A DNA stretch of 64,000 nt, from assembly GCA_963835065.1 (NCBI GenBank), contig CAWIEK010000002.1, positions 160,001 through 224,000 of the forward strand, in the 5' to 3' direction. The stretch is from an uncultured Chthonomonadaceae bacterium (GTDB taxonomy: Bacteria; Armatimonadota; Chthonomonadetes; Chthonomonadales; Chthonomonadaceae). The position numbers and the translations under genes are program-made. Shown here piece by piece: positions 20,751 to 44,884 of the stretch. How positions within the stretch are numbered: position 1 is the stretch's first letter; every line of letters begins with the position of its first letter. The notes under the pieces were generated by a model. It did no database searches and was not told the origin of the DNA. It saw nothing but the letters and a program-made list of their open reading frames with translations.

Positions 20751-21864
20751 CCTGAAAACGATCATACACCAGCCCCCAGCGGAGGCCGCGCGTACTGATG
20801 GCGATAGACGGCGCGGAAAGACGCGCCATAGCGTGGGAAAGCAGAATCGCTCCCCCTAAAATAATATCGGCGCGGCGCGGGTCAAGGCCGGGAATTTGTT
20901 CGCGCTGCGCAACGGTGCTGGATGCCAGCAGTTCGATATGCCGGCCCAGTTGGTCGGCAGTCAGCAAATGGCCGTGCAGGGGTTCGGGGCCGTATTTGCC
21001 GCCCTGATCCATGGAGCCTAAATTGGTGACGGTTCCCCCCACGCCAACAAGGGCATACTCTTCCGAGGCCGCAAACGAAACGGCAGGCGACGGATTGGAA
21101 GACGCGCCGGTGTGAACCAACGCGCCGGTATTGGAAACATCGCCGCCATGAGCAGACCCAATGGACTCCTCATCTATGCGCTCGAAAGCTTTGAGGACAG
21201 CGGCGTTGGCGTCCTGCAATTGCTGCACGGTGGGCGGGTCGGAGCGTAAAAACTGCTCGGTCAGTTTCACGGCTCCATAGTTGACGCTGATGCGGGCGGC
21301 AATGTCGCTGCTGTGGAGGGTTCCCTGTATGATTTCCGTGCTGCCGCCGCCAATATCTATCACGCGCAGGAGCGGACGACTGCGCCAATGCGGGTCGCGC
21401 CGTACGGCAAGGTAGGACAGGCGGGCCTCTTCCTGACCAGGTATCACGTCAATGTTCAATCCCAATCGTTCCTGCGCGCGGGCAAGAAACTCGTCCCGAT
21501 TTTCCGCGTCCCGCAGAGCGGCGGTTCCCACAGCGGCAAACGCCTGCGCCTGATGTTCCCGGCCCGCAGCCACCAGTTCCGCCAGCGCGTCCAGCGTTCG
21601 GCGCATGGCGGCTTCGCGCAGTCGGTTGCCCTGCGCCTGCATCCCTTCGCCCAGTCGCGTGATAATCGTCTGCTCAAAAATTCGTTCCGCCCGCCCGTCC
21701 GCCAAATCCGCCACAATCATCTTCACCGAATTCGTGCCGACATCAATACCGGCATATAGTTGGGTGTTGGGTGTTGGGTGTTGGGTGTTGGGTAAGGATG
21801 AATCCTCTCCTTCTGTTCCCTGTTTCCTGTTCCCTGTTCCCTCACTTATTCCTTCCTCACTCAT
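20731..21864 (-). CDS. ppx: Ppx/GppA exopolyphosphatase catalytic (ASKHA) domain
   Basis: IDVGTNSVK, GTAALRDA, EEARL, DIGGGSTE, RADII, GLRWG; repeat-derived N-terminus. Confidence 0.93.
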   Translation of the reverse strand: MSEEGISEGTGNRKQGTEGEDSSLPNTQHPTPNTQLYAGIDVGTNSVKMIVADLADGRAERIFEQTIITRLGEGMQAQGNRLREAAMRRTLDALAELVAAGREHQAQAFAAVGTAALRDAENRDEFLARAQERLGLNIDVIPGQEEARLSYLAVRRDPHWRSRPLLRVIDIGGGSTEIIQGTLHSSDIAARISVNYGAVKLTEQFLRSDPPTVQQLQDANAAVLKAFERIDEESIGSAHGGDVSNTGALVHTGASSNPSPAVSFAASEEYALVGVGGTVTNLGSMDQGGKYGPEPLHGHLLTADQLGRHIELLASSTVAQREQIPGLDPRRADIILGGAILLSHAMARLSAPSIAISTRGLRWGLVYDRFQEVDSRR

Positions 21865-22763
21865 GCGCGTCCTCCGTGCTGCGAACGGGTTCTGCTTGCC
21901 CGCTCAGGGCGTACAAGCGGTCGCTGGCTTCGGCCACGTCTTCGGCCAGGCGGGCTTGCGTTTTGCGATCCAGTTCTGTTTGAGGCAGGGCTTCTCCCAG
22001 GGCTTCGCGCAAGCGGCGCAGGCGGCGGAGGGCGCGTTCCTGATCTTTTTCTCCCCCCTGCGCCAATGCCTGTTGCCAGGCGGGAACCCCGGCGGCAAAC
22101 CGTACCAGTTCGCGTAGCAGGCGGGCGCGAAAATCCGGCGCGAACCGACTGGTCAGCAGCAGAACAATCTCTTCCCGCGTAACTTGCAGTTCCAGCCGCC
22201 ACAACGGCAGGGCTTCCGGCACATTCAATTCACCTGCGGGCTGTTTCGCCTGAACTGTTGACAGGAAAGAGGAGTGCGCCTGCTCTGCAAAGATTTTCGT
22301 CGTGTTTCCATTTGACGCTTCTGCTGCAACGGTTTCAGTAAGGACCGGCTCCGGCAGAATCGGGCGCGTTTGCCAGGAACGTCTGGATATGCCGCGCCTT
22401 GATTTCGCTCATCCCCGGCACGGCCAGCAATTGTTCCAAACTCGCGCTTCGCAACAGCGCCAGGCTAGTCAGCCCCGCCTTTTCCAGCGCCCGAATCCGT
22501 ATCGGTCCCAGGCCGGGAATGTCGCGGGGAACGCGCGGCCCCGTTTCGAGCGACGGCGCGTTCAGGCTTAACGGCGCTGCCGGGCTTAACGGGCTTGACG
22601 GCGCGGGCAGGGGCGTTTGCGTCCTGTCTTTGCTTGCCTTGTCGCCCTTGCTGCCCCGGCTTGCCTGCTTTTTCCGGGGCGGCAACGCGGCGGCGGGCGG
22701 CGGCGATGTGTCCCGGTTCGCCGGGCGCGCGCGGGGTTTGCGGGGTTTGTCTGTCGGCGGCAT
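21857..22763 (-). CDS. helix-hairpin-helix domain protein (apparent +1 frameshift near 22363)
   Basis: GAGGAG-ATG at 22763; DIPGLGPIR and AVPGMSEIKA HhH motifs; removing one C from gcgcccgatt joins it to the 21857-22228 ORF. Confidence 0.7.
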
Positions 22764-23655
22764 CCGGCTCCTCATAGGTTGAAGGTTGAGGGTTGAGGGT
22801 TGGGGGGGCAGGCAAGGATGAAGGATGAAGGATGAAGGATGAATCCATTGCCGATTTTCGATTACCGATTGCCGATTGAATTCCTTCTGTTCCCTGTTCC
22901 CTGTTCCCTGTTCCCTGTCCTGCTGTCTTCTCTTCTCCTTTTCTTCCTTCAATTCCCTGATTGCGCGTAAGCAGGTGGCGCAGGTTTTCAAAGACTTGAT
23001 TGGCGCGTATCTGCTGCCATTCCTGCGTTAATTGGGCGTAGCGGGCGTCGCGTTCGGCGCGGAGTTGGGCGCACAGCGTGAGCAATCCATCGCAAGCGGC
23101 GTAATCCACCTGATGTACGCCCACGATAGGAAGCGCTTTGGCCGATTTGCCGGACTTGTCGGACTTATGGACATGAGCCGTCTTATCGGCGTTGGCAGGC
23201 TTGCCGGATTTAGCGGAATGGGCATTATACGCGGCGCTTTTTGTTTTGCTTTGCTCACTTTTGACTTCGTTCATGCCCGCTTGTTCGGCGGCGGTTGGCA
23301 GGCCATACCCATTTTTGACAAGGCGGCCCAAATGTTGCAATATCTCTGGAACCAACACGTCGGCGTCATGCAGGACGCCAAGATGCTCCTGCAAATCCTT
23401 GACCACTTGCAAAGCCGCGCCGAACTCCGCTCCGGCATCGGTGTACCGCGTGTAAACCGGCTGAAATACTTCCATTGTATAACGCAGGCGCTTGCCCGCG
23501 ATTCGCATCTCATGAAGTTTGTACACATTGTCGGGATTGGACAGGCAGGATTCGTAAGACAGCAATTCGTCCACGCGCTGTGTAATCAACTCGGCGGCAT
23601 TGATGAGAATAGGACGACGCGGATTGACTTTTGGAGGTGACTTTGCTTTTGCCAT
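22465..23655 (-). CDS. CHAD-domain protein (3' end uncertain, runs through a repeat cassette)
   Basis: LHEMRIAGKRLRY, LQEHLGVLHDADV. Confidence 0.88.
   Translation of the reverse strand: MAKAKSPPKVNPRRPILINAAELITQRVDELLSYESCLSNPDNVYKLHEMRIAGKRLRYTMEVFQPVYTRYTDAGAEFGAALQVVKDLQEHLGVLHDADVLVPEILQHLGRLVKNGYGLPTAAEQAGMNEVKSEQSKTKSAAYNAHSAKSGKPANADKTAHVHKSDKSGKSAKALPIVGVHQVDYAACDGLLTLCAQLRAERDARYAQLTQEWQQIRANQVFENLRHLLTRNQGIEGRKGEEKTAGQGTGNREQGTEGIQSAIGNRKSAMDSSFILHPSSLPAPPTLNPQPSTYEEPDAADRQTPQTPRAPGEPGHIAAARRRVAAPEKAGKPGQQGRQGKQRQDANAPARAVKPVKPGSAVKPERAVARNGAARSPRHSRPGTDTDSGAGKGGAD
22777..22950. repeat. composite cassette of five different short tandem arrays
   Basis: (GGTTGAG)n, (GGATGAA)n, (CCGATTG)n, (CTGTTCC)n, (TTCTCCTT)-like. 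Confidence 0.95.
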
Positions 23656-28392: not shown

Positions 28393-28957
28393 TTGCAACC
28401 AGAAGACTTACCCGGCACAGACCCGAACACGTTGCCCTACTTCATCACCGAAGCGCAAACGGGACCGCAGAGTTCCCGCGCGCTTTGAGCCGCTGACACT
28501 ACAGGACACAGCGGAACTTAACAACGAGGATTGGGAAAACGCCGTGTTCAAACATGTCTGGCCGCAATTATTAACGGATGAGAACACGTTCAAGTTGGTA
28601 CGTGTGTCTTCGACAGACACGCGCATTCAAGGAGTGGCACACGTCGGCAGCGTACTATGGGCGGGAGGATTGCTCGAAAAGAGCCTGCTGGAAGCTGCGC
28701 CGTTCAACTTGCGCGGTCAGCCCATGCAGGCATACCGGGGCGCAGGCCGGACGCTTGTGGCGCGTCTGGTTGTTGAAAGCATCCTGCAAGGCGGGCAGGG
28801 CAGAGTAGGCGTTGTTCCTCGCCCCGGCTCAGAAGCATTTTATCAAAAGCTTGGGTTTCAGCCCGGTAAAATATTTCGGTTGAGTTCGACAAATGCGCAG
28901 GCGCTGCTGCAAACGGCGTTATTGCCGGCGATGGGAACGCAGGAGGAGACAGAATGA
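28393..28957 (+). CDS. GNAT-like acetyltransferase, array unit 1 (apparent +1 frameshift near 28465)
   Basis: paralog of 30602-31156; LLEAAPFN, YRGAGRTLVARL, GSEAFYQKLGF; extra C in gggaccgcag. Confidence 0.8.
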
Positions 28958-29208
28958 ACACCCCGGAACAACAAATGCGAACCGAACGCGCGCTTCAGCA
29001 GGCGCGTGACCTGATACGGCAGGAGTGGCTTGCGGCAGGCAAAACGAAAGCACAATTAGACCAAGAGGAACAACTTCTCGCGCTTTATAGCCGCCTGCTG
29101 AGTTCAGGACGTTCCGAGGATGAGGTTGATGCCGAATGGGAACACAAAACGCCGGAAGAAATCCTGCGCGAGTACGCCCCGCTCGTTCCTGTGCTGCACA
29201 GCGCGTAA
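28954..29208 (+). CDS. small helical partner protein, array unit 1
   Basis: ATGA overlap with the GNAT stop, GGAGGAG RBS; W.A.G.T..LD...SGRS.....EWEHKTPEEILREYA. Confidence 0.85.
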   Translation: MNTPEQQMRTERALQQARDLIRQEWLAAGKTKAQLDQEEQLLALYSRLLSSGRSEDEVDAEWEHKTPEEILREYAPLVPVLHSA

Positions 29209-29241
29209 GAACAAACTACGCTCGGCTACAAGGTGAACGGA

Positions 29242-29815
29242 TTGCAACCAGAAGACTTGCCCGGTACTGAACCCGAACACACTGCCTTATCTCGTTACGG
29301 AAGTGCAGACACAGCGTGTTGTTCCTGTGCGCTTTGAAGCCTTGACACCGGCAGATACGCCTGAACTCAACAATGAGGATTGGGCGCAAGCGGTATTTGC
29401 TCCTGTCTGGCAGCACCTCGTCGGCGTAGAAGGTGTCTTCAAACTGGCGCGAGTAGATGCGCAGGACAAGCGCATCTAGGGATTAGTTCATTTAGGCCTG
29501 CTTGATGGCAGATTTCTCAGACAGAGTTTATTGGAAACGGCTCCTTTTAACCGCAATAGGGGCGTACTACGTGATTACAAAAGGGTTGGGCGCGTATTGG
29601 TGGCGCGTCTGGTAGTGGAAAGTGTCCTGTTGGGCGGGCAGGGTCGCGTAGCAGTGGAACCGCGAACAGGAACTGAAACATTCTATGAGGCGCTCGGTTT
29701 CGCGGCAACTTCTCCTGACAGCCGACATTATATCCTGAGTGCAGAACATGCTCGGAATTTACTGCAAACAGTCTGGCATAATCCAGAGGTGAATGGAGGT
29801 CACAATGAACAATGA
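29242..29815 (+). pseudogene. GNAT-like acetyltransferase, array unit 2, disrupted
   Basis: +1 frameshift near 29270 and in-frame TAG at 29477-29479 where the paralogs have Gln (RIQG). Confidence 0.75.
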
Positions 29816-30050
29816 AGAACAACAGATGAGAGCGGAACAAGCCCGACGCATGGCGAAGAAAATCATAGAGGATAGTTGGCTGGCAACGGGAGTAACGCAG
29901 CAGGAACTGGATCGAGACGAGCAAGTTATGCAGGTTTTCAGCCGCTTAGTAGCCTCTGGACGTTCCGAAGAGGACATTATTGTGGAGTGGAAGCATAAAT
30001 CAGCAGAGGAAATTCTGCGCGCGTACGCTATATTTGTACCTGCAAACTGA
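29805..30050 (+). CDS. small helical partner protein, array unit 2
   Basis: GGAGGT RBS; paralog of 28954-29208. Confidence 0.85.
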   Translation: MNNEEQQMRAEQARRMAKKIIEDSWLATGVTQQELDRDEQVMQVFSRLVASGRSEEDIIVEWKHKSAEEILRAYAIFVPAN

Positions 30051-30059
30051 TGCACCGCT

Positions 30060-30515
30060 ATGAATCAACTCAATTCTGAACAAAAGAAACTTCTTAAACG
30101 CCGGGGAGCCGATTTGAAGAAGTTTGTCGCTGATGCTTTCCCGTGCATTGGGGAGTTGCTTGCTCGTATCGGAGCCGATAATCAGTATAGTATCCAAGTT
30201 GATCTGGAACGGGTTTTGTCTGTTGTAGACACATGGTTTTCTGACTTTGAGTTTTCTGAACTTGATAGTCAGGATTTCGTATGGATCCAAACTCGCCTCA
30301 TGTAATTGATTGGAGAAGTTTTCATTATTCGTTATGGTGGACGATGGGAAGTGCAGTGGGATTCTGAAGCGGATTTCTTCGGACATTACATAATCAGCGT
30401 GTTTCAGAATGTGCTGCCCACTACCACGCTGCTCTCTCCCGCGTATGTTGCACTCAACTACATGCATGAGCCATTGGGACGCAGTTCTGTTTTTGAGAAT
30501 AGAACGAATACGTGA
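30060..30515 (+). pseudogene. AT-rich immunity-like gene interrupted by TAA at 30303-30305
   Basis: two ORFs in one frame read RLM*LIGEVFIIRYGGRW. Confidence 0.55.
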
Positions 30516-30601
30516 GCAGGCGATTTCAGAGGGAGTACAATTTAATTTTAAATATAAATGAAATTAAATAAACATAAGAACGACGCGACAAGGTGAACCG
30601 A

Positions 30602-31156
30602 TTGCAACCAGAAGACTTGCCGGGTACGAACCCGAACACGCTGCCCTGCTTCATCACCGAAACGCAAACGGGACGCAGAGTTCCCGCGCGCTTTGAGCCG
30701 CTGACTTGGCAGGACACGGCGGAATTGAACAATGAAGATTGGACGCAGGCTGCCTTTGCACCAACATGGCTTCAACTTGTTCACAATGAACACGTTTATA
30801 AACTTATGCGCGTAGAAGAGCAAGATAGGCGAATTCAGGGACTAATTCATGTCGGCGTGGTTGTCCCCGGAATAACCTATCTGGCAAACAGCTTGCTTGA
30901 AGCCGCGCCTTTTAACCAGCGTCATAAGAACTTGCGGGAGTACATTGGCGTTGGGCGTGTTTTGGTAGCACGGCTGTCTGCCGAGAGTGTTAAGCAGGGT
31001 ATGCAAGGCCGCGTTTTGGTGCATCCACGTTCAGGAACGGAAGGGTTTTACACAGCATTGGGGTTCTATGCTTTGCCGCCGCGAAAGCGCAATTATGTTC
31101 TCGACGAGGAACCCGCAGCAACATTGCTTCAATCCGTTTGCCTGAAACCAAGTTAG
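30602..31156 (+). CDS. GNAT-like acetyltransferase, array unit 3 (intact)
   Basis: TTG start 6 nt after AAGGTG (or GTG 30593); LLEAAPFN, YIGVGRVLVARL, GTEGFYTALGF. Confidence 0.85.
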   Translation: MQPEDLPGTNPNTLPCFITETQTGRRVPARFEPLTWQDTAELNNEDWTQAAFAPTWLQLVHNEHVYKLMRVEEQDRRIQGLIHVGVVVPGITYLANSLLEAAPFNQRHKNLREYIGVGRVLVARLSAESVKQGMQGRVLVHPRSGTEGFYTALGFYALPPRKRNYVLDEEPAATLLQSVCLKPS

Positions 31157-31215
31157 CCCAAACGGGAAGCTATGGACGTTACATCTGTCTGTATTGTCAG
31201 AAAGGAGAAATTAGC

Positions 31216-31437
31216 ATGGAAAGCAGAGAAGATCAAGCCACCCGCGCTCTTCAAATGGCAAGAGAAATGATGGATCAGGAATGGATTGCCACTGGCGTTA
31301 CGAGAGAAGAATTAGATCAGGACAGACAACTGGCGCAGTTGTTTGACAAACTGGTGACGGGCGGACGTTCCAGTAAAGACATCGTTGCGGAATGGGAACA
31401 CAAAACGCCGGAAGAAATTCTGCGCGAGTACGCCTAG
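31216..31437 (+). CDS. small helical partner protein, array unit 3
   Basis: AAGGAG RBS; ends EWEHKTPEEILREYA. Confidence 0.85.
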   Translation: MESREDQATRALQMAREMMDQEWIATGVTREELDQDRQLAQLFDKLVTGGRSSKDIVAEWEHKTPEEILREYA

Positions 31438-31640: not shown

Positions 31641-31897
31641 AACCAAGCCGCAGTTTGATGCAAATGCCACGCCCAACCAATTGTTGCAGCGGACAGACTC
31701 CATTTGATGCCCTGAACAAACCAAAACTGGGCAGGCCTGCCCGCCGTTACTGGAGCATTGAACCGGCCCGTAAATATCTTTACCATCCCGCCTGATAAGA
31801 GGTCAGACGGGTATCTTTTTGCCTCTCCGATGGCTCTGTTTGTGGTACACTATACAACCAATGTCTACTATGTTTGGGAGTCGGGGAGGACGTGAAC

Positions 31898-33995
31898 ATG
31901 GGCGAGTTTCAACTGATTTCGGACTATACTCCGGGCGGCGATCAACCCGTTGCCATTGACAAACTGGCGCAGGGCATCCGCGACGGCAAGAAGTTCCAGA
32001 CGCTTTTGGGAGCGACGGCCACCGGGAAAACGTTTACGGCAGCCCAAATCATTCAAAAAGTGCAGCGGCCTACCCTCGTCATGGCGCACAACAAGACGCT
32101 CGCCGCCCAACTCTGCTCCGAGTTCCGCGAGTTCTTTCCCAACAACGCCGTCGAATTCTTCGTGTCCTACTACGACTACTATCAGCCCGAAGCCTACATT
32201 CCCGCAAACCGACACCTACATCGAAAAAGACAGCCAGGTCAACGACGAAATCAACCGGCTAAGGCACAGCGCCACCCAAAGCCTCCTCGAACGCCGGGAC
32301 GTGATTGTCGTCTCCTCCGTCTCCTGCATCTACGGGCTTGGCTCTCCCGACGAGTATAAAGAAATTGTCCTCGCCTTCAAGCGCGGCGAACCCTACGACC
32401 GCGAGGACGCCCTCCGCCGCCTGATAGACATGCAGTTCACCCGCAACAACATGGAACTCACGCGCGGCACGTTCCGCGTCCGCGGCGACACCCTCGAAAT
32501 TCAGCCCGCCGATGAGGAAATCGTCATTCGCGTCGAGTTCTTCGGCGACGATGTGGAGAAAATCACGCTTGCCGACCCGCTCACCGGCGAACTCATCGGG
32601 ACGCGGGATACCATTACCGTGTTTTCCGCCAGCCACTTCGTCACGTCCAAAGCGCGGCTGGAAAAAGCCATCATTGAAATCGAAGCCGAAATGATGGAGC
32701 AGGTTGCCTATTTCCGGCGCAATCAGCAACTCTTGGAAGCGCAGCGCATCGAGCAGCGCACCCGCTTCGACATCGAAATGATGAAGGAACTCGGCTACTG
32801 CTCCGGCATCGAAAACTACAGCCGCTTCATGGACGGACGGACGCCCGGTTCCGCGCCCTACACCCTGCTCGACTACTTTCCCAAAGACTTTCTCCTCGTC
32901 GTGGACGAAAGCCACCAAACCCTGCCGCAGATACGCGGCATGTACAACGGCGACAAAGCGCGTAAAGAAACCCTTATCAACTACGGGTTCCGCCTGCCCT
33001 CCGCAGCCGACAACCGGCCCCTGAAATGGCACGAATTTGAAGAGCGCCTGAACCAGACGATCTTTGTTTCCGCCACGCCCGGCCCCTACGAAAAAGAACA
33101 CAGCGAGCAGGTTGTGGAGCAAATCATTCGCCCCACCGGACTCGTAGACCCGCAAATCATCGTGCGCCCCACCAAAGGCCAGATTGACGACCTGATCGAA
33201 GAGATACGCAAGCGGGTGGAAAAAGAGGAGCGCGTCCTCGTCACCACGCTCACCAAAAAGATGGCGGAAGACCTGACCGAGTATCTGGAAGACCTCAAAA
33301 TGAAGGTCAACTATCTGCACAGCGACATCAAGACGATGGAACGCACGGAAATCCTGCGCAACCTCCGGCTCGGCGTCCATGACGTGCTTGTCGGCATCAA
33401 CCTCCTGCGCGAAGGCTTGGACTTGCCGGAAGTCACCCTTGTCGCCATTCTGGACGCCGACAAAGAAGGCTTCCTCCGCTCCGAAACCAGCCTCATCCAA
33501 ACCATCGGACGCGCCGCCCGCAACGTCGGCGGCGAAGTCATCATGTACGCCGACAACCTGACGGGCAGCATGGAACGCGCCATTGACGAAACCAACCGCC
33601 GCCGCGACAAGCAACTCGCCTACAACAAAGAACACAACATCACGCCGCAAACCGTCCGCAAGGCCGTGCGCGACCTGATTATGGCCGAGCGCGTCGCCGA
33701 AGAAAAGAACGACTACAGCACCCAAAACGCCAGCGCCCGCCTCAAAGCCGACCCCGCCACCATGAGCCTCAGCCAAATAGAGGAAGTCATCGGGCAACTG
33801 GAAAAGGAGATGAAAGACGCCGCCCGCGCCCTCAACTTCGAGTACGCCGCGGAACTGCGCGACGAAGTAAACGCCCTGCGCAAACTCGCCCCCAAAAGCA
33901 GCGTCGGGCAGGATGCAGGCACATCCGCGTTGGGCAAAGACAAGGCGCTGTATGGGGCCGGCAATAAGGCAAAGAGCGGCAGGGCAAAGAAGTAA
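31898..33995 (+). CDS. uvrB: excinuclease ABC subunit B (apparent +1 frameshift near 32203)
   Basis: [46 protein letters not shown] domain; extra C in attcccgcaa. Confidence 0.97.
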
Positions 33996-34917: not shown

Positions 34918-35017
34918 CCTCCGTAATTATTGACGCAGCCTGAATATTCGTGTCAACTGTGTTTGCCCCAACCCCATTCTTCCCCAACGCTCACAGCCAC
35001 AATCCAGCAAAAAAGAC

Positions 35018-35302
35018 AGAAAAAAGAGCAAAATAACGCGAAAAAAGTTGAACCTTTTGCCCAACTGGCGCTGTCTAAACAGTAATACAAACGTCTACTA
35101 TACAGAGACGAAGGTTGAACGTTGGTAGTTCCTATCAACTATCAACTATCAACTTAAGAAGGGAGGTGCCAGTCCTATGTTTCACCCCTCCCGTTCGCCC
35201 TGACGCTGCTGAGGTCACGACGCCTCACTCCTACAACTTGACACAACGAGACATCGGGCTGGAAGCGCTGTATTGCCAAGATTTCGACGATCTCTCTACA
35301 TA
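35018..35302 (+). ncRNA. candidate sRNA / leader element, copy 1 (ECF-like promoter, RBS, MFHPSRSP* at 35177-35203, conserved 3' RNA)
   Basis: homologous to the reverse complement of 44622-44884; 44-nt identical core. Confidence 0.55.
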
Positions 35303-35409
35303 CCCTTTTTTGTTCCTGGCGTCCTGGTGGTGAAGAGTTACCCGGAAAAATAGGTAACATAATCGGGCGGATGGGTTCTAAAATGTGCAGCAAGTCAGCG
35401 CAGGAGTGG

Positions 35410-38302
35410 ATGTTGCACTACAGGGAAAAGAACCAAATCAAGAGGCGGTCCGGCGCCTCGTTTACCGGCGGTTGTGGGATGGCGGCCTTTGCCGCGCTCG
35501 TGCTGATGAGCGCCCGGCAGCAGCCCTCGGACGCGCAGGCGCGAAGCCATCCGACGCAAAGCAAAGATGCGGCGTCTAGCGGTCACGCTACGGGAATTCT
35601 GCCGCTGGTCAAGAAGTATTGCCTCGACTGCCACTCCACGCAGGCGAAGCGGGGCCACCTGGACTTGCAGCGCTTTGCCACGTCCGAACACATTCGCCGC
35701 GAGGCGCAAACGTGGCAGGGTGTCGTCGAGCATCTTGAGGTGGGCGATATGCCGCCGCAGGGGCATCCGCAGCCCACATCCGGGGAAAAACAGCAATTGC
35801 TCGCCCAGGTTCGCGCCCTTCTCGCTACGGAAGCCAATGCGCGGGCAGGGGATCCCGGCTACGTTCCCCTGCGCCGCCTGAGCAATGCCGAGTACAATGC
35901 GACGATCCGGGACCTGACCGGCGTGGACATGCAGCCCGCCCGTGAGTTCCCCGCCGATGGCGCTGCCGGCGAGGGGTTCACCAACGCCGCCGAAGCGCTC
36001 ACCGACATTTCCCCCGACCTGCTCACCAAGTATTTCAACGCGGCCAGAGAGATTGCCGACCATGCGCAGCTGCTGCCGGACGGCATTCGCTTTGCCCTGG
36101 GAAAGACGCGCCGCGATTGGACGGACGAAAGCACCGCCCGCCTCCGCGCCTTCTACGCCGCCTGCCCTGAAGCGGGGGCAAAATCCGACGGGAAACTCGC
36201 GTTTCAGCCCTATCTCGCCGCTCTTGTCCGACACCGAGACGCGCTGATTGCCGGACAGACCACGCTCAACAAAGTTGCGATAGAAGAGAAACTCAACGCC
36301 AAATACCTGCGCATCCTGTGGCAAGCGCTTACGGATACCACGCCCTCCTACCCTCTGGATGCCATTCGCGCCCAATGGCGAAAAGCGGCCCCGGACAATG
36401 CTCTCCCGCTCATCAAAGAGGTCACTGCCTGGCAGTCGGCGCTGTGGCAGACCGTCCGCGTGGGCAGTTACGTGCACGCTGTCGGGAAAGGCTTTGGCGA
36501 AAGCGTGACCCGGCAGATCGCCGTAAATCCGACTCCCGCCGAAACGCGAACGCTGCGAACCGCCAACAGCCTGACACCCGGACAGAACGAGGTCCCCAAC
36601 ACCCAACACCCGACACCCGACACCCGACCCCCTGCCGCCGGTTTGTCGCCGGGGCAGAACGAGAATGTCACGGAGGCGCGTCTGCTTGCCGGGTATGCCG
36701 ATTTCCGGCGCTGCTTTCCCCTCTTTGTCTGCTTTCCCGGCGTGATCCCGAACGACGAAGTGGTTTCACTGAAAATGTTCCATCGGGAAGACGAACCGCT
36801 CCGCGAGTTGTTTCTTGACGCCGAGCAGACTCGCCGCCTTGACCGTCTCTGGACGGAACATCGCTTCCTCAGCCGCCAGCCCGTCGCGGAAAACACCTAC
36901 CTGCCGCTCTTCATCGGCTTCGTCTCTCAGGACCAGCCCAAAGAACTGCTTTCCTACTTTGAGAGCCAGCGCCCGGTCTTCCGCGCCCGCGCCGAAGCCT
37001 TTGAAAAGGAGGAAGCCGCCGCGATACCCCAGGCAACTGGAAGCCCTCCTTGACTTTGCCGCCCGCGCCTACCGCCGCCCCCTCCTGCCAACGGAGAAGA
37101 CCGATCTGCTCGGCCTGTACCGCGAGATTCGGGCCAAAGGCATGGCGCATGAAGCAGCGTTTCACAATGTGCTGGCGCGTATTCTGGTGTCGCCCGCGTT
37201 CCTGTTCCGCGTGGAGAAAGCGCCGCAGGGAGGAAATCCCGGACCGGTAAACGATTGGGAACTCGCCACGCGGCTCAGTTATTTTTTGTGGTCGTCCGCT
37301 CCCGACGAGGAACTGCGCAGTCTTGCCGCCGGGGGCAAATTGCATGACCCGCAGGTTCTGCTTGCGCAATCGCGCCGGATGCTCAAAGACGAGCGCGTCC
37401 GCGCCCTGGCCGTTGAGTTCGGAACGCAGTGGATCAACGTTCGCGGCTTCGACGCGCTGAATGAAAAGAACGAGCGGCTGTTCCCGACGTTCGACAGCAG
37501 CCTCCGGCAGGCCATTTATGAAGAGTCCATTCTCTTCTTTCAATCGCTCTTCCAGTCGGATCGGCCCGTAACGGAGATTATTGACCGGGATGACACGTTT
37601 TTGAATGAGACTCTGGCAAAGCACTATGGCATCCCCGGCGTAGTCGGTCCGCAGTGGCGGCGCGTTACGGGAATCCATAAGTACGGGCGCGGGGGCGTGT
37701 TGGGGCTGGCGAGCGTACAGGCGCATGAAGCCGGGGCGTCGCGCACCAGTCCCGTCCTGCGCGGAAACTGGGTCGTCGAAACGCTGCTCGGAGAAAAGCT
37801 GCCGCGTCCTCCGGCCAACGTGCCCAAACTGCCTGAAGAGGAGGGCAGTGACGGTCTGACAATGCGGCAGCAGGTTCAGAAGCACACCAAAACGCCCTCG
37901 TGCGCCATCTGTCACCAGCGAATTGATCCTTACGGCTTCGCCCTGGAGCATTACGACGCCATTGGCCGCTTCCGGGACAGCGAAACCGGTGGGCTGAAGG
38001 TGGACGCAAAGGCGAAACTCAAGGACGGGACGGAATTTGAAGGCATAGACGGACTGCGCCGCTACCTGCTGACAAAGAAGCAGCCGGTTATTGCGCGTCT
38101 CTTCTGCCGCCGTTTGCTGGGTTACGCCCTGGGCCGCTCGGTTCAAAATTCCGACCAGCCGCTTTTGGACAAGATGATGCAGGATTTAGCGAGCCATGAG
38201 GGGCGCGTATCGGCAGTCGTGGAGGCCATCGTTCAGAGCCGACAGTTCCGCAGCATACGCGGCACAACGTACACAGGCACAACGTATGCAGGCAACAAGT
38301 GA
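35410..38302 (+). CDS. cytochrome c / DUF1587-DUF1595-DUF1592-DUF1588-DUF1585 protein (apparent +1 frameshift near 37030)
   Basis: CLDCH and CAICH haem motifs, LRRLSNAEYNATIRDLTG, ELATRLSYFLWSS.PD, TSPVLRG; start approximate. Confidence 0.9.
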
Positions 38303-44621: not shown

Positions 44622-44884
44622 TATGTAGAGTAATCGTCGAAATCTTGGCAATACAGCGCTTCCAGCCCGATGTCTCATTGTGTCTGGTTGTAGGGGTTAG
44701 AGGCGTCGTGACCTCCAAAGCGTCAGGGCGAACGGGTGTGGACAGGCATCTTCTGCACCTCCCTTCCTGTATGTCTAGCTTCTGTATAGTACCTGCCTGT
44801 ATTGTAGATACTTGTATACTACATCTGACAGGTGGAGGCGGAAGAAGGTTTCTCTTTTTTCGCGTTGTGCGGCTCTTTTTTTCG
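44622..44884 (-). ncRNA. candidate sRNA / leader element, copy 2 (MPVHTRSP* at 44749-44723)
   Basis: inverted homolog of 35018-35302; no co-oriented downstream gene. Confidence 0.55.

Follow-up and report, generated by a model that had tools for sequence, protein, structure and literature searches.

A genus-restricted family of intergenic elements combines a micro-ORF ending in Pro-stop with a conserved RNA domain in Chthonomonadaceae

The window analysed here, a stretch of 64,000 nucleotides, contains two copies of an element that is real, strongly selected and restricted to one genus. Its parts include a promoter motif, a micro-ORF that ends in Pro-stop, a hairpin at a fixed distance behind the stop codon, and a second RNA domain built around an invariant 15-mer. 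Our preferred reading, to which we assign a probability of roughly 0.45, is a stress-induced mini-gene whose RNA would capture a ribosome, park it at Arg-x-Pro-stop and present the 3' domain.

A preliminary description of this DNA had proposed that positions 35018..35302 and the reverse complement of 44622-44884 form a duplicated unit with shared modules. The two regions do align along these intervals with all modules in place (Table 1). They are not a duplication of two, however, but members of a genome-wide family of 162 copies in the source genome (G000, from a soil bacterium; 8.0 Mb, 92% complete), which we compared with two congeners, G001 and G002. Similarity between copies mostly ends at the 3' UACAUA and U-run. 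Copy 1 is flanked by a low-GC orphan gene and a DUF1587/cytochrome-c gene; the neighbour of copy 2 is a GH38 alpha-mannosidase gene, convergent with it, whose 3' end it adjoins.

Table 1. Positions of the element's modules in the window
Feature	Position	Strand	Basis or remark
Phased A-tracts 5' of the promoter	35008..35047	+	Sequence; common to most copies; putative UP-element-like role
ECF-type promoter motif GAACC...GTCTAA, copy 1	35050..35078 (GAACC 35050-35054, GTCTAA 35073-35078)	+	Strict pattern match
Second -10-like GTCTAC	35093..35098	+	Possible sigma-dependent pause site
Optional TATCAAC 7-bp tandem repeat, 5' spacer	35133..35153	+	Sequence
Shine-Dalgarno GGGAGG	35161..35166	+	0.98 identity (12 MITE copies)
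Micro-ORF MFHPSRSP-stop (R-x-P-stop)	35177..35203	+	Codon-level conservation
Stop-to-hairpin spacer, 7 nt, length fixed, sequence variable	35204..35210	+	210/215 copies
Hairpin H1 GAGGU/GCCUC, loop CACGAC	35211..35226	+	Each pair in 218-220/220
A/C-rich linker, unpaired, length variable	35227..35247	+	Single-base length changes; predicted unpaired 0.87
Domain 2: GAGA/UCUC closing stem, GC-UGGAA-GC loop, 15-mer	35248..35296	+	Pair and core conservation
Invariant 15-mer AGCGCUGYAUUGCCA in domain 2	35264-35278	+	Exact-match counts
44-nt stretch identical in both window copies	35248-35291	+	Pairwise alignment
UACAUA followed by U-run, probable 3' terminus of the RNA	35297..35311	+	TTTT <=16 nt from end in 134/162 copies
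Copy 2, whole element	44622..44882	-	Alignment with copy 1
Copy 2, promoter	44851-44824	-	Alignment
Copy 2, Shine-Dalgarno	44763-44758	-	Alignment
Copy 2, micro-ORF MPVHTRSP*	44749-44723	-	Alignment
Copy 2, H1	44715-44700	-	Alignment
Copy 2, domain 2	44676-44628	-	Alignment

An iterated profile search delimits the family sharply. All 162 matches in the source genome have E values of 1.4e-31 or better and are near full length, the next match has E 1.8, and a tail of decayed fragments is absent. The congeners carry 13 copies (G001) and 46 full copies plus one partial copy (G002), a 12-fold range of copy number within the genus (13, about 46, 162). Altogether 221 loci were analysed (162 from the source genome, 13 from G001 and 46/47 matches from G002, the partial L093 included). 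Records matched by pattern are assigned to Chthonomonadaceae. No copy was found by DNA search in 58 relatives outside the genus, or with a covariance model in 39 other genomes of the family. The 299 other genomes of the phylum gave six single 15-mer matches against six control matches and no real copy. All three sets are samples that include incomplete genomes. Viral contigs gave no match in one search and one seed-only match in another. Metagenome contigs gave no match and then 11 at <=21 bits, which is chance compared with the 78-150 bits of true copies.

The absence of a known RNA family, as first suspected, was borne out by Rfam, which had no match in the window at the gathering threshold; the sole other Rfam match, at 19 bits against a cut-off of 80, is spurious. 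A description of the family was likewise not found in the literature listings searched, nor was a mention of the phylum in passages of an RNA-discovery paper (PMC11109978). A separate observation concerns a contig labelled Solirubrobacteraceae (L052:570-711), where the RNA part, complete but lacking a promoter, abruptly meets a penicillin-binding-protein-like frame, with unrelated sequence beyond. It is most likely an assembly chimera, and otherwise a cross-phylum insertion.

The micro-ORF is the best-defined module. The hairpin pattern was located in 215 of the 221 loci, which define the stop-to-hairpin counts; the six loci dropped comprise five with variant hairpins, in which Pro-stop is still seen by eye, and one that is truncated. 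The stop codon lies exactly 7 nt 5' of the hairpin in 210/215 copies, and 6, 8, 8, 8 and 9 nt away in the other five. Among these 210, residue -1 is Pro in 208 (CCC 161, CCT 25, CCG 16, CCA 6), which substantiates the micro-ORF with Pro-stop proposed from the two window copies. Residue -2 is Ser (144), Pro (57), Ala (7) or Gln (2). Residue -3 is Arg in 192 copies, with all four CGN codons in use, and Leu (11), His (6) or Gly (1) in the 18/210 that lack Arg. TGA is the stop codon in 175 copies, TAA in 34 and TAG in one. An in-frame start behind the Shine-Dalgarno sequence (SD) gives 8 or 9 codons in 150/157 copies of the source genome and in 42/42 of G002, and 9 or 15 codons in 9/11 of G001; ORF lengths change in steps of 3 nt. 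Synonymous change at fixed residues, three stop codons and 3-nt steps are together a signature of translation. To judge from these substitution patterns, the end of the ORF is under selection at the protein level.

N-terminal to these last residues the peptide is free to vary (MFHPS.., MPVHT.., MLCLLPL.., and 15-mers in G001). Since that part is unconstrained, the position of the ribosome at the stop codon, and not the product, appears to be what is selected. The opposite reading, in which the 8-15-residue peptide is itself the product (a signal or toxin) and the RNA domain only stabilises its message, would account for the strong SD and for the intact frame in most copies. It sits badly with constraint limited to the last three residues, and it assigns no role to the fixed distance from stop to hairpin; we regard it as very improbable. 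Pro-stop is not avoided in this organism, since C-terminal Pro is common there: it ends 547 of 6586 proteins roughly predicted with a simple gene caller (about 8%), and R-x-P ends 41 of the same 6586 (0.6%). The SD is predicted to pair with the ORF in 98/135 leaders of the source genome compared with 20% of 385 control genes; in G001 and G002 this predicted pairing is no more stable than in synonymous recodings. According to these folding models, SD occlusion could limit ribosome loading. A few micro-ORFs are frameshifted, possibly through long-read homopolymer errors. Single frameshifts also split uvrB and the DUF1587/cytochrome-c gene (window 31874-33995, 35371-38302) and fit the same kind of error.

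The hairpins behind the ORF, one of which had been noted in both window copies, hold across the family. H1 keeps its pairs in nearly every copy (Table 1), with a change from A-U to U-A in one G001 clade and an alternation of G-U and C-G (164/54) that favours the + strand as the RNA. In the stem of domain 2, the outer three pairs are kept in 219-220/220 copies, the fourth in 86/220 and the next two in about 200. For 19 chosen diverse rows, the structure was better than shuffles and slid controls; changes on both sides were confined to three pairs and largely to one G001 clade. The folding energy of the whole RNA was no better than that of shuffles (z -0.54 and +2.01). The 15-mer is exact in 220/220 aligned copies, including 162/162 in the source genome and 13/13 in G001, and structure predictions leave it only half paired. 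Being invariant and half paired, it looks like a recognition site. No pairing of the 15-mer or the RNA with 16S or 23S rRNA or with tRNAs exceeded shuffles, and no partner or target was found. A duplex of H1 with tmRNA scored -25.7 kcal/mol, beyond the shuffle range, although only rRNA was used to score the shuffles, and the two arms of H1 already pair with each other.

Several other functions were tried for this part of the element. Coding in the +1 or reverse frame was ruled out by single-base indels in the linker, which exclude a second reading frame. A CsrA-type GGA loop was rejected on the occurrence of UGAA in 16/220 copies, and an internal UGG:CCA pseudoknot and hammerhead or HDV-like cores were dropped after inspection by eye. 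The suggested pairing of GCCCUGA over the stop codon with downstream UCGGGC did not survive comparison: its 4-bp core is possible in 149/161 copies of the source genome, 15/45 of G002 and 0/13 of G001, and it shows no compensatory change.

The promoter motif GAACC-N15/16-GTCTA, which we take to be of ECF type from the sigmaE/sigmaW-type consensus, is present in 149/162 copies by strict pattern, with box positions conserved at 0.95-0.98. As proposed earlier, the boxes persist while the spacer drifts (0.93-0.97 against 0.73 identity in 12 MITE copies). A promoter matrix gave 159 matches at elements, a count that is circular because the matrix was trained on them, and 45 elsewhere, 13 of these upstream of genes; on these numbers the family would make up most of the regulon. 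A second GTCTAC follows the first by 12-15 nt in 131/149 copies, and was also seen by eye in three promoter matches that are not elements. The source genome has 57 sigma region-2 matches, and a loose form of the motif lies upstream of 3 of the 45 checked. Five G001 copies (L006, L009, L012, L015, L018) and some G002 copies (L084, L066, L074) have a different upstream block instead, CTTCTAAA... and then AACATATAG or GTTAATA. A longer structured leader is present as well in the G001 copies of this type, four of which carry 15-codon ORFs that end in RPP-stop. Replacement of the ECF motif by another block indicates that the promoter was swapped and the RNA kept.

These modules suggest the following mechanism. 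An ECF (stress) sigma factor would start transcription at the motif and thereby switch on many ribosome-parking RNAs at once. A ribosome would load on the 8-9-codon frame and might stall at termination, with peptidyl-tRNA-Pro in the P site and the stop codon in the A site. By the geometry of mRNA entry, a hairpin that follows an A-site stop codon by 7 nt begins about 14 nt from the P site. H1 would therefore sit at the mRNA entry channel, where it could hinder tmRNA rescue or scanning nucleases, and the 15-mer, left free, might dock a protein or a ribosomal surface.

The proposed stall draws on known arrest peptides. According to PMC10987492, NSP-stop and NAP-stop peptides, which depend on residues -3 and -1, arrest the ribosome with the stop codon in its A site; in RAPP-like motifs it is the third residue that occupies the P site during the stall. 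The register of R-(S/P/A)-P-stop is the same, and by analogy with NSP/NAP-stop residues -3 and -1 would set the stall here. The same paper reports that most RAPP-like motifs from other proteins gave no arrest. PMC7246954 reports slow release after Pro, links stalling at Pro-stop to the absence of RF3 and refers to Hayes 2002 for such stalling in E. coli. RF3 had no match over the cut-off in any of the three genomes. With a peptide of 8 residues the stall may be brief, or the peptidyl-tRNA may drop off. Two soil metatranscriptomes (X12, X20) each contain one contig of the family, both within the predicted transcript span, at a depth of 2-5.6 in Logan contigs at which DNA carry-over is possible; neither run has a long close match to the genes that neighbour copies.

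CCC-UGA is prone to frameshifting, and a hairpin placed 7 nt behind the stop codon is reminiscent of the elements that stimulate recoding. The copies might on these grounds act on downstream genes, as leader-peptide attenuators or as signals for recoding (frameshift, readthrough, selenocysteine), and a same-strand gene does follow 61 of 161 copies. The other 100/161 face a convergent gene (p 0.003), however, and the intergenic copies share no neighbour family; the earlier suggestion of a leader is likewise not supported for a downstream gene. Moreover, 35 copies use UAA or UAG, 22 use CCG or CCA, and single-base changes in the linker keep no downstream frame. This reading is largely refuted, and we give it very little weight.

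Along the chromosome, copies avoid each other. Only 4/105 gaps are shorter than 10 kb, compared with about 27 expected, and the deficit applies to pairs in direct (3 vs 13.6) as well as inverted (1 vs 13.7) orientation. It is missing from two repeat families used as controls, with 142 and 141 copies. Median gaps depend on orientation in a post hoc comparison (convergent 21 kb, tandem 36, divergent 48; p 0.0007), with the same direction in G002 that is not significant (p 0.14). An RNA acting in trans leaves this avoidance unexplained, and the avoidance is the main support for a reading in which each copy is a cis-acting chromosomal landmark. Each would act in place, through a protein-bound DNA core or a nascent complex of RNA, ribosome and polymerase, to mark or insulate a domain of roughly 10-25 kb. 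If copies act locally, extra copies nearby would be redundant or harmful, and retention of promoter and core copy by copy is easier to explain in cis. Against it stand the 12-fold difference in copy number among congeners, the lack of a copy in the source genome at 27 of 37 comparable G002 sites, the non-significant asymmetry in G002, and the ORF and RNA pairing, which indicate a function at the RNA level. We consider it unlikely as an alternative to the ribosome-parking mini-gene.

No genome-wide bias towards a replication strand was seen with skew proxies (74/162 and 76/161); only on contig C49 do 14 of 18 copies point to the skew switch. GC skew is strong only around one sharp switch near 300 kb on C49, and the other large contigs checked have almost none, which suggests a heavily reshuffled chromosome. 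The same contig carries a tight array of 16 tRNA genes, including Ile(tat), at G000:C49:430274-432286, typical of mobile or phage-derived tRNA clusters. One copy, at C68:39187, is about 550 nt from dnaA (G000:C68:39879-41495) and convergent with it; on C45, a sigma-factor gene has a copy about 1.3 kb upstream. The TATCAAC repeats are a separate genome-wide family of 141 arrays, 28 of them near elements. Families of 7-bp tandem repeats (TATCAAC, CAACACC, GGGAACA, TCATCCT) occur between genes and inside ORFs, in the window at 35133-35153, 36597, 28123, 7738, 11436 and 21763-22888. Upstream of uvrB, window positions 28544-31437 hold three tandem paralogous two-gene units of lower GC, each with a GNAT-like looking frame and an 85-100-aa frame, toxin-antitoxin-like by appearance only.

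Part of the family has moved with transposons. ISAs1-type terminal inverted repeats (TIRs; 19 bp, starting CAGGG) flank 13/162 copies at both ends and 13 at one end, and are absent from 136; the resulting MITE of roughly 460 bp forms one subfamily. A 10-bp target duplication (0-1 mismatch) is present in 8 of the 13 two-ended copies. Autonomous ISAs1 elements with the same ends are present in G002 (L128, L129; NF033564 transposase); none was found in G001 or in the source genome, which is 92% complete. A subset of the family has therefore spread as cargo of an ISAs1-type MITE, which is observed for the one subfamily. Another subset probably spread in an ISAzo13-type MITE shell: ISAzo13 ends lie near 31/162 copies compared with 28/4447 other intergenic regions (both ends at 4/162, the right end alone at 22 and the left end alone at 5, with no distinct target duplication), and autonomous ISAzo13 elements occur in the source genome and G002 and not in G001. 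G001 has neither transposase and the fewest copies. The two window copies have neither ISAs1 nor ISAzo13 ends. Among autonomous ISAzo13 elements, those at C41 and C53 have a split frame. A second MITE family of about 100 bp, found genome-wide in the source genome (and at L132:150-1520), has ISAzo13 ends and internal REP-like palindromes.

Within the 12 MITE copies, the boxes, SD, RSP-stop, H1 and core have identities of 0.93-0.99, compared with 0.71-0.85 for TIRs, shell and spacers. The early argument for selection on modules holds, and by this conservation contrast the cargo is selected while the shells decay. Comparison between genomes adds a second process. The downstream flank of 37/46 G002 loci aligns to the source genome, which has a copy at 10 of these and none at 27, with clean empty sites. 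At 11 shared sites, ranking the 162 source-genome copies by similarity to the congener's copy places the occupant of that very site only 4th to 118th. Copies thus resemble their own genome's family more than the congener's same-site copy, and core variants combine in all ways with both subfamilies. Together these two patterns indicate gene conversion, which explains the homogeneity of the family and not the position-specific pattern inside 30-bp stretches. Under the ribosome-parking reading, copies would hitch-hike in MITE shells and then convert one another, and selection would preserve the cargo as the shells decay.

The same data could describe a selfish non-autonomous element. Its promoter, ORF and RNA would then work for its own multiplication, with only intact, transcribed copies acting as donors in transposition or conversion, and would bring the host no benefit. 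ISAs1-type TIRs on 26/162 copies, the target duplications, the autonomous partners in G002, the enrichment of ISAzo13 ends, the low copy number of G001, the empty sites and the within-genome resemblance of copies all fit it. However, DDE transposases need only the ends of an element, the cargo is conserved in copies with decayed TIRs, and the 162 near-full-length matches have no decayed tail. Spread by retroposition was rejected: neither of the two reverse transcriptases of the source genome is next to a copy, and the promoter lies outside the predicted RNA. We regard the selfish reading as unlikely, too.

A broader synthesis, which we hold to be doubtful in its full form, would join these observations in a 'ribosome dock'. 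Here an RNA gene under a stress sigma factor would fix a 70S ribosome by a Pro-stop stall and a hairpin at the entry channel, the 3' domain would recruit a factor, and about 160 regularly spaced loci would also organise the chromosome locally, as domesticated cargo of two unrelated transposon shells. The arrest peptides known are leaders that serve a single downstream gene, and MITEs are regarded as repeats that are largely passive. An RNA that stands alone, programs a ribosome stall in order to present a structured domain of its own and is kept intact in up to 162 spaced copies would offer a novel means of storing ribosomes or of linking translation with chromosome layout. The 221 natural variants are a ready mutational scan.

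Among known systems, the family shares with x-S/A-P-stop and RAPP-like arrest peptides the C-terminal x-(S/A/P)-P-stop and the constraint at -3 and -1, and with RAPP/RAGP the placing of Arg two positions ahead of the residue in the P site. The x-S/A-P-stop arrest peptides described are encoded by long, single-copy uORFs with N-terminal localisation signals upstream of secA, secDF or yidC, whereas here 8-15 codons stand alone, followed by a non-coding domain, in 13-162 copies with unrelated neighbours and no regulated gene. Several dispersed copies under an alternative sigma factor are known from Qrr, Rsm/Csr and cuckoo/CcsR RNAs, and a small ORF on a regulatory RNA from dual-function sRNAs. 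The family has both features, its sigma factor being putative, but differs in a copy number one to two orders higher, in a Pro-stop ORF at a fixed distance from a hairpin, and in having no Rfam match and no base-pairing target found. Bacterial SECIS elements, stop-codon recoding hairpins and tmRNA all position RNA structure relative to a ribosome at a stop codon. Unlike the first two, the family uses all three stop codons (UAA 34, UAG 1), has no continuing frame and has linker indels that are not multiples of 3; unlike tmRNA, it has no tRNA-like 3' CCA end, and the source genome has its own tmRNA and tRNA-Sec. With ISAs1-family MITEs it shares 19-bp TIRs, a 10-bp target duplication and an autonomous partner in G002, but only for a minority subfamily to which the window copies, lacking these ends, do not belong, and inside the shell lies a predicted transcription unit that is under selection and persists after the shell has decayed. 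With its stall proposed by analogy, the family resembles a termination-arrest peptide joined to an unmatched RNA domain, travels partly like a MITE, and is a full member of neither class.
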